Assembly (NCBI GenBank): GCA_963710375.1
Contig: CAVPZX010000004.1
Coordinates: 160,001-224,000, forward strand
DNA length: 64,000 bases
Direction of reading: 5' to 3'
Origin: Nitrospirota bacterium
GTDB lineage: Bacteria > Nitrospirota > Thermodesulfovibrionia > Thermodesulfovibrionales > Dissulfurispiraceae
The notes beneath the pieces were generated by a model. The model was given only the letters and a program-made list of their open reading frames with translations, ran no database searches and had not been told where the DNA came from. Position numbers and translations under genes: made by a program. This document shows, piece by piece, positions 19,972 to 22,138 of this stretch (position 1 is its first letter; the number at the start of each line of letters is the position of its first letter).

Positions 19972-20253
19972 ATGATAAAGTCCTTCAACGATAAAGATAC
20001 TGAGCAGCTTTATTTGACAGGGAAAAGCAGAAAGTTCCCTATAGCGGTTTGTAAGGCGGGTATTCACAAACTTGATTACCTAAATGCCGCAACAAAGCTA
20101 CAGGATTTGAAAGCGACGCCTGGAAACAGGCTCGAAATGTTAAGGGGCAGATATGAAGGCAAGTACAGCATCAGGGTCAACGACCAGTACAGGATTATAT
20201 TTAAATGGCATAATTCTTATGCTTACGAAGTGAGAATAACTGATTACCATTAA
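19972..20253 (+). CDS. higB: HigB/RelE-family toxin
   Basis: MIKSFNDK, DLKATPGNRLE, YSIRVNDQYRIIF, ITDYH. Confidence 0.93.
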   Translation: MIKSFNDKDTEQLYLTGKSRKFPIAVCKAGIHKLDYLNAATKLQDLKATPGNRLEMLRGRYEGKYSIRVNDQYRIIFKWHNSYAYEVRITDYH

Positions 20254-20265
20254 TGGAGGTTAGCC

Positions 20266-20581
20266 ATGTTTGATTTAAAAAGAGAGCCCACGCACCCTGG
20301 AGATGTGCTGAAATATGACTTTCTGGATGAGTCTGAATATATCGCAGACCCAGCTTGCCAATGACTTAAATACTACTTTCAGGACTATAAATGAAATCAT
20401 AAACCATAAAAGAGGTATCAGTCCTGAAATGGCCGTGCGGCTTGCCAAGTATTTCGGTACATCAGAAGAGTTGTGGCTAAATTTACAAAACCAGTACGAC
20501 TTGTATAAGGTCAAAATGAAGAAGAAAAAAACTTTAGATAGCATCAGGGCATACACAGACTTGCATACTGCGGCGGTTTAG
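20266..20581 (+). CDS. higA: HigA-family antitoxin, +1 frameshift at 20332
   Basis: SD GGAGGT; REPTHPGDVLKYDFLDE then (shifted) LNISQTQLA...RGISPEMAVRL...WLNLQ. Confidence 0.9.
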
Positions 20582-21828: not shown

Positions 21829-21922
21829 TGTTTTCTCCTCTCAGGAATGATGATAACAAATTACTTATTGCCTTGCAAGGAAGAATTTTCACAACCGCCT
21901 TTTCGGTAACAGCTGTTTAACC

Positions 21923-22090
21923 CATAAATTTATACTAGGAGCAGGCTGGTCATGGTGCTGAGCGGACTATGACAGCCTAAGTGACACCAGGGATGGTGAC
22001 ACAGGCTGTCATAGCCTCGGAGCAAGGCCGGATGCCTTGCGAGAATGAGACGAAGCACTGTGGCCTGACTGCTCCTAGTATAAATTTATG
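21923..22090 (+). other. Structured non-coding element with 22-bp perfect terminal inverted repeats (MITE-like or ncRNA)
   Basis: cataaatttatactaggagcag (21923-21944) / ctgctcctagtataaatttatg (22069-22090); two internal hairpins. Confidence 0.8.
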
Positions 22091-22138
22091 AATAATGTGG
22101 ATTAGACGCCTCCCCGAATTCTGCTATAATTAGCTATC

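Follow-up and report, generated by a model that had tools for sequence, protein, structure and literature searches.

Between the divergent cheW-cheZ and nudC genes of a Nitrospirota genome, the window analysed here (the whole stretch of 64,000 nucleotides) contains a segment predicted to fold into a long stem enclosing two hairpins, which raises the question of what this segment is and why its fold has been kept. The initial annotation delimited it to 21923–22090 and proposed an undescribed non-coding RNA or a non-autonomous mobile element, under selection for a single-stranded fold and with a topology loosely recalling retron msr-msd. Hereafter, G000 designates the source Nitrospirota genome, the other G labels designate genomes, and L labels designate loci.

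Structure of the element in the window

The position between the two divergent gene groups is as first described, and so are a perfect 22-bp inverted repeat (21923–21944 / 22069–22090), a second stem of 12 pairs including three G-U (21948–21959 / 22054–22065), and two inner hairpins (21967–22014 and 22022–22040). No frame of at least 80 aa spans the element, in agreement with the reported lack of an ORF. Predicted folding energies are -99.3 kcal/mol for the + strand (z -13.1) and -90.2 kcal/mol for the - strand (z -13.5), and none of 200 shuffles equalled them on either strand; with DNA parameters, the values are -58.7 and -50.3 kcal/mol for the + and - strands. While the fold was correctly recognised, the ends were not, since the element spans 21921–22101 (181 bp): compared with other copies, the right terminal repeat continues to 22101, and the left one is shortened by 9 bases. 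Likewise, the absence of a target-site duplication holds only for the ends initially proposed. At the true ends lie TTAA (21917–21920) and TTAG (22102–22105), both of them 4-mers of the YTAR target type, although not identical. The features of this copy are as follows.

21917–21920, no strand: left target-type 4-mer TTAA (YTAR), from the sequence; the flanks of 119 terminal-repeat matches compose Y-T-A-R
21921–21944, + strand: left terminal arm, an IS1380-type repeat that lacks 9 bases following CCC and continues into the outer closing stem (copy comparison)
21948–21959, + strand: inner closing stem P1, 5' strand (fold and covariation)
21960–21965, + strand: junction strand 1, conserved, GAGCGG (alignment and distant copies)
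21967–22014, + strand: hairpin P2, variable in sequence and length within the family; loop AGGGAT at 21989–21994 in this copy (fold and alignment)
22015–22022, + strand: junction strand 2, conserved, CCTCGGAG (alignment and distant copies)
22022–22040, + strand: hairpin P3, with a variable stem; loop CGGAT in this copy (fold and alignment)
22040–22054, + strand: junction strand 3, conserved; family form CGAGAATGAGCGAA, with one base more here (alignment)
22054–22065, + strand: inner closing stem P1, 3' strand (fold)
22069–22101, - strand: right terminal arm, its outer 20 bases being the IS1380-type terminal repeat (18/20 identical to the right end of L074)
22102–22105, no strand: right target 4-mer TTAG, present in G008 upstream of nudC without the element (sequence)
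22103–22130, + strand: sigma-70-like promoter match for nudC, TAGACG-16-TATAAT, in host sequence outside the element (consensus match only; similar in G008)

The first box of the promoter-like match overlaps the target 4-mer TTAG. In six relatives, nudC is preceded by other DNA, and in G008 the TTAG and promoter-like sequence lie upstream of nudC with the element absent; the window copy thus sits at a gene-order break. On the other side, a segment of 32 bases (21849–21880) located upstream of cheW is conserved in three of four relatives and includes a promoter-like match on the - strand, and a HigB/HigA toxin-antitoxin pair (19972–20581) is located downstream of cheW-cheZ.

A dispersed repeat family

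The element is one of 27 copies in G000, all in intergenic positions by crude gene calls. This copy number lends no support to an RNA gene confined to a single locus, and together with IS1380-type ends and empty sites it supports the proposal of a non-autonomous mobile element; the initial annotation had suggested looking for genomic copies and for empty sites in relatives, and both exist. Both ends are present in 14 of the 27 copies, the unit measuring 189 bp from one 4-mer to the other, and some 231 bp when a 40-base insert is present. This insert, a hairpin placed right after P3, is carried by five G000 copies (C1:68554-68735, C2:585612-585792, C2:664985-665164, C4:136711-136891 and C5:330672-330852), and its tail also occurs beside the Y1 element of G000, with seven matches genome-wide. 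No match to Rfam was obtained at cut-off, the best being a microRNA model that, with 21 bits, fell well short of its threshold; in the 13 stretches scanned, the only sequence to pass a gathering cut-off was a neighbouring tRNA.

Copies are visible in seven of nine same-genus genomes, and a model of the core was positive for 42 of 121 genomes belonging to the class and gave 56 matches in G374. A second phylum likewise has the exact junction pattern, in 10 genomes out of 301, with counts of 41, 13, 12 and 8 in four of these; the single matches L406, L408 and L409, which lack the closing stem, are probably due to chance. In metagenomes, the junction-only pattern retrieved 121 loci (an estimated total of about 2100), of which 89 form a closing stem with an energy below -15 kcal/mol; an IS1380-type end is kept at 32, a similar pattern arising by chance in 6/580 windows. 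The plasmid collection gave no match, and the viral contigs none to two patterns. At L324, a full core adjoins a gene whose product has the editing domain of an archaea-type threonyl-tRNA synthetase, so that the host range of the family may be wider. Several G374 copies (L166, L168, L171 and others) are arranged as inverted doublets within about 250 bases.

IS1380-type ends and insertion

A search with the terminal repeat was positive in 17 of 301 genomes of the phylum. Among 20 matches examined, one (L069) flanks an internally deleted IS1380 element, whose transposase remnant matches NF033539 with an E value of 4e-47, below the whole-protein cut-off. When the L069 protein was used as query, an IS1380 transposase was found in only one of nine other same-genus genomes. 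In the same-genus genome G008, L072/L074 is a 1653-bp IS1380 element with TTAG on both sides and a frameshifted transposase, the pieces of which match PF13701 (E 2e-70 and 2e-75); L076 and L078 contain open transposase frames of 462 aa. The right end of the window copy shares 18/20 bases with that of L074, and another copy 22/23. Past these ends, whose shared part extends at most to about 50 bases (left end of L074), no significant likeness links the repeat to six IS1380 elements. A match to a known IS family, which the initial annotation regarded as contrary to its proposal, is found for the terminal repeats but, in the comparison with these six elements, does not extend to the interior.

The repeat displays the MITE marks that were tested: it is short and devoid of a transposase frame, shares its terminal repeats with an IS, is associated with a target duplication and empty sites, and exists as many dispersed copies. 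It is not itself a member of IS1380, as it encodes no DDE_Tnp_1_4 transposase. No IS1380 transposase was found in G000 or in four core-rich related genomes; four genomes from other groups, whose IS1380 elements bear this terminal repeat, were negative with the core model.

Insertion is confirmed by empty sites in relatives that hold a single 4-mer. CTAA occurs once in a G000 empty site and twice around the copy in L033, this being the one clean pair among the 12 filled/empty candidates listed. At two of the four G000 sites tested against five relatives, a single 4-mer is present in the relatives, and the C9 copy of G000 is flanked by TTAG on both sides where relatives hold a single TTAG or CTAG. 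Identical 4-mers surround only one of the eight G000 copies with TA on both sides. The 58 IS1380-related loci allowed 34 end pairs to be called, 18 of them with identical, mostly YTAR, 4-mers; after removal of four pairs (L092, L110, L114 and L120) called on a weak, chance resemblance at the far end, the proportion is 18/30, leaving unequal 4-base flanks in 12/30 IS1380 elements with the terminal repeat. A 2-bp TA duplication, which the MITE flanks alone would permit, was rejected in view of the 18/30 IS end pairs with identical 4-mers. The unequal flanks may have arisen in three ways: repair from one arm to the other that extends to the innermost base of the flank, recombination among copies, or carry-over of the four flanking bases of the donor. 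By analogy with piggyBac, the last of these could operate through the donor overhangs.

Within its first 110 bases, the IS1380 element of L074 contains an inverted repeat that would cover the ribosome-binding region of the transposase. Over 51 bases, most of them terminal repeat, the 5' arm of this inverted repeat shows a weak alignment (74.5%) to the arm of the MITE, which hints at an origin of the MITE from the left end of the IS. In another class of the phylum, L052, L055 and L057 carry the same IS1380-type ends around a different structured interior (209–254 bp), which gave no match to model R1. A CRISPR-like array (L069:1365-1580) starts about 30 bases past the deleted IS1380 element.

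A conserved three-way junction in several shells

Alignment of 36 copies yields a three-way junction in which 28 of 40 pairs show double changes and 96.7% of cells are paired. None of 500 shuffles was as good (11 pairs in shuffles), and slid controls reached 15 pairs at most. The junction strands GAGCGG, CCTCGGAG and CGAGAATGAGCG are fixed, whereas all three stems vary; even in distant copies, with wholly changed hairpins, the three strands are kept. Conservation is thus highest in the junction, with some 28 letters that are unpaired or only weakly paired, and the stems and loops around it turn over. The GNRA loop put forward as evidence of selection is indeed present in the window copy as GGGA, but it is copy-specific, being found in only 1 of 27 genome copies, and was discarded as an argument. 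Five of the 36 diverse copies have a GGGA loop, the others AGGA, TGGA or CGGA, and the consensus fold forms a six-base loop at this position. Selection on a single-stranded fold, as first proposed, is nevertheless favoured, on the grounds of covariation and strand-biased wobble pairs.

The core is not restricted to the IS1380-type shell. It was found inside a second end type (L021-L024, L030, L031 and G000 C3:208302), inside a third (about 7 of 10 G010 copies and L302, by eye), and inside another repeat (L185 and L192), hence in at least three other repeat shells, and some cores have no recognisable shell. Among 42 cores from G196, G114, G010 and G199, none had the IS1380-type terminal repeat at up to four mismatches, with worn remnants visible by eye in some. 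Since the core also resides inside other shells, IS1380 cannot be its only carrier.

Strand, orientation and maintenance of the fold

Counted in stems that were chosen by Watson-Crick pairs only, G-T wobbles exceed A-C on the strand given as +, with ratios of 96:18 in 98 metagenome stems, 41:6 in 47 G374 stems and 3:1 in 9 second-phylum stems. G-T wobble is tolerated in single-stranded DNA too, so this bias would fit either RNA or DNA as the acting form. Within same-direction gene runs, the junction strand is mostly antisense (10:5, 12:7, 20:6 and 24:8; pooled 66:26), these counts resting on crude gene calls in three of the four sets and on related genomes that are not independent. A replication-strand bias is suggested in G000 (18:5 by whole GC skew, 11:3 by third-position skew); in G374 it is 22:13 (p 0.18), and there the transcription bias is clearer.

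Arm differences, scored in 22 copies (462 cells), are mirrored in 16 cases and one-sided in 10. At orthologous sites, interiors are flipped in five pairs and in the same direction in eight. The orthologous-pair comparison (nine pairs, L016/L028 being left out as anchored off the core) revealed one clear interior swap, with an identity of 0.78 between orthologues against 0.93 and 0.97 to paralogues. Identity among paralogues in four genomes declines outwards, from 0.72-0.81 in the interior to 0.54-0.70 in P1 and 0.45-0.55 in the terminal zone, for a baseline of 0.45. Template switching has been reported to create and maintain hairpins, giving compensatory changes without selection (PMC8794818), so that stem covariation alone is weak proof of function. 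It does not account for a junction that stays fixed, for wobble pairs that favour one strand or for the biased orientation.

Proposed origin and alternative explanations

Taken together, these data make it probable that the repeat is a 189-bp MITE moved in trans by an IS1380-type DDE transposase, with a junction core kept by selection on a single-strand fold of one strand. Judged from the ends, movement by an IS1380 transposase is likely; it is also likely that the conservation of the junction letters in two phyla reflects selection on the single-stranded fold. Since none is encoded in the assembly, the transposase would be supplied from outside or would have been lost. Template switching between the arms during replication may mend the stems and flip the interior, and gene conversion among copies may exchange interiors. 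Neither process can fix unpaired letters across two phyla, for which reason the junction probably serves the element's own spread as a centre of recognition or reaction. Its active form would lie on the + strand, as RNA by a slight preference over single-stranded DNA. Exposure of this strand in a transcript would probably be costly to the host, and we propose this cost as the reason for the mostly antisense placement in same-direction gene runs.

An overlapping explanation, to which we give a minor but real share of probability, makes the core itself the mobile or functional unit, either a structured RNA (for instance one that cleaves itself or binds protein) or a REPIN-like DNA fold that enters MITE shells of several families; it differs from the preceding one in that the core is the primary mobile unit and the IS1380 ends are one vehicle only. 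The occurrence of the same junction within IS1380-type ends, two further end types, another repeat and no shell at all would fit, as would the exact pattern in 10 of the 301 second-phylum genomes. Small ribozymes have variable stems around fixed letters, which the three stems and some 28 letters resemble. However, the junction does not have the CUGA start of the hammerhead, the core has no Rfam match and is absent from viral contigs, and no enzyme recurs in 135 flanking frames. The two IS200 transposases next to G374 copies had inserted themselves into the terminal repeat, and the remaining 41 of the 43 transposase loci scanned had no core match. Shell-less copies often retain worn remnants of the IS1380 repeat, and same-family genomes contain single copies with intact ends (L060-L062), which also counts against this explanation. 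At the opposite extreme, the repeat might be a neutral MITE relic, its fold maintained by template switching and gene conversion alone without structural selection. Mirrored arm changes, flips and swaps are all observed, and paralogue identity falls from the centre to the outside as conversion would predict; yet conservation is highest in the unpaired junction letters and not in the stems and loops, which turn over. Together with the one-sided wobble pairs and the biased orientation, this leads us to regard such a relic as improbable.

Two readings that assign the fold to a known system fare worse still. A domesticated host regulator, namely, a CsrA/RsmA sponge or cis-element acting via GGA loops, was suggested by the presence of GGA in both loops of all 36 sequences of alignment A1, by the fit of loop 1 to the high-affinity ANGGAX hexaloop described in PMC4005645, and by the location of G000 csrA next to fliW-like and flagellar genes. 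When the search pattern did not require GGA, an A(N)GGA P2 loop was present in only 7 of 121 loci (P2 being readable in 97) and a GGA P3 loop in 28 of 121; ten G374 copies examined have no GGA loops, and loop 2 is mostly without the A. Moreover, the GGA strand is mostly antisense to its neighbours, which have no common function. As the loops are not conserved across the family, CsrA binding was rejected as a family-wide function, and a regulator of this kind is very doubtful. The retron-like msr-msd RNA evoked in the initial annotation, or an integron attC site, is the least credible of all and can be considered largely refuted, even though a long closing stem does enclose two inner hairpins and ends reading TAAC...GTTA resemble attC core sites. 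RVT_1 is absent from G000 and three copy-rich relatives (G196, G114 and G199), the 135 flanking frames include no reverse transcriptase, and there is no Rfam retron match. The copies are scattered in both orientations among housekeeping genes rather than in cassette arrays, and their ends are accounted for by IS1380 repeats and YTAR.

Comparison with known systems

The IS1380 family (NF033539, PF13701) has ends that begin with CCC and a short target duplication, which matches the repeat; the differences are the lack of a transposase, the length of 189 bp and an interior unrelated to the IS. The target is a 4-bp YTAR here, whereas that of IS1247 is given as 5 bp (PMC3281130). The eukaryotic counterpart of IS1380 is piggyBac (PMC5718144), and the passages concerned describe CCC ends and a TTAA-like 4-bp target, as in the present family (PMC7351741, PMC10813416, PMC5718144), with 4-base overhangs left on the transposon ends (PMC7351741) and carried to the new site (PMC7351741, PMC10813416, PMC5718144). 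Apart from being eukaryotic, piggyBac is described there as strict for TTAA, unlike the present family, and overhang carry-over in IS1380 would hold by analogy only.

Among bacterial MITEs, Correia/NEMIS, ERIC, RUP and QMITE are described as similarly shorter than 500 bp and intergenic, with terminal repeats, a target duplication, a stable fold, tens of copies and movement in trans (PMC10969869, PMC3184786). The present family is distinguished from them by its IS1380-type ends, IS1380 being unmentioned in the review passages on MITEs, and by a fixed three-way junction across phyla and unrelated shells. The family most resembles bcr1, found in the Bacillus cereus group, a mobile element of about 155 bp with two cruciform-like stem-loops in which compensatory changes are kept (PMC3184786). 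By the description given there, bcr1 is set apart by 5-bp direct repeats, by being transcribed and by its occurrence in one group only. No description of the family was found in Rfam or in the openly accessible articles searched.

The REP/REPIN and TIRtron systems of Y1 transposases (PMC3733652) also consist of dispersed folded intergenic repeats, a likeness that extends to the inverted doublets seen in G374. In the present family, by contrast, no GTAG or CGTC foot was noted. Nor do copies flank a Y1/RAYT gene as REPs do, the core being near only 2 of 43 loci, both of them IS200 insertions into the terminal repeat; the IS200 elements at these G374 copies (L213 and L230) were dismissed as partners on this ground. 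The sole Y1 transposase of G000 was likewise rejected, as it has its own 26-bp repeats of the GGGGTCAG type and lies 1.45 kb from the nearest copy with an unrelated gene between.

MITE interiors are commonly regarded as passive filler. For an IS1380-type MITE with a selected structured core, an activity of this core as RNA or DNA represents a candidate function, and some 28 letters fixed across two phyla and unrelated shells, with a strand and orientation bias, suggest that a fold of very small size, which is easy to synthesise, has an activity. As a tentative extension, which we hold possible without thinking it probable, the junction may represent a new type of small functional fold, whether an RNA that cleaves itself or binds protein, or a reaction site in single-stranded DNA. 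It would travel across phyla within the MITE shells of several IS families, pass from one shell to another through exchange of interiors, and be eliminated from the sense strand of operons owing to its action on transcripts. Were the core inert, the family would be an ordinary but uncatalogued MITE. The unequal flanks of 12/30 IS1380 elements, as carry-over would give, provide a sequence-level handle on IS1380 movement.

Other repeats in the same genomes

The Y1 element of G000 (L011, C2:219420-220440) encodes a Y1_Tnp protein of 314 aa with a weak DnaA C-terminal match and is bounded by 26-bp inverted repeats, which start with GGGGTCAG like the TIRtrons of PMC3733652. A second MITE-like family is present in G000 (C2:666603-666786 and others), with 66 matches to its end motif. 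It occupies the same intergenic site where G003 and G002 carry the core repeat, and other insertion sites are likewise reused by different repeats.
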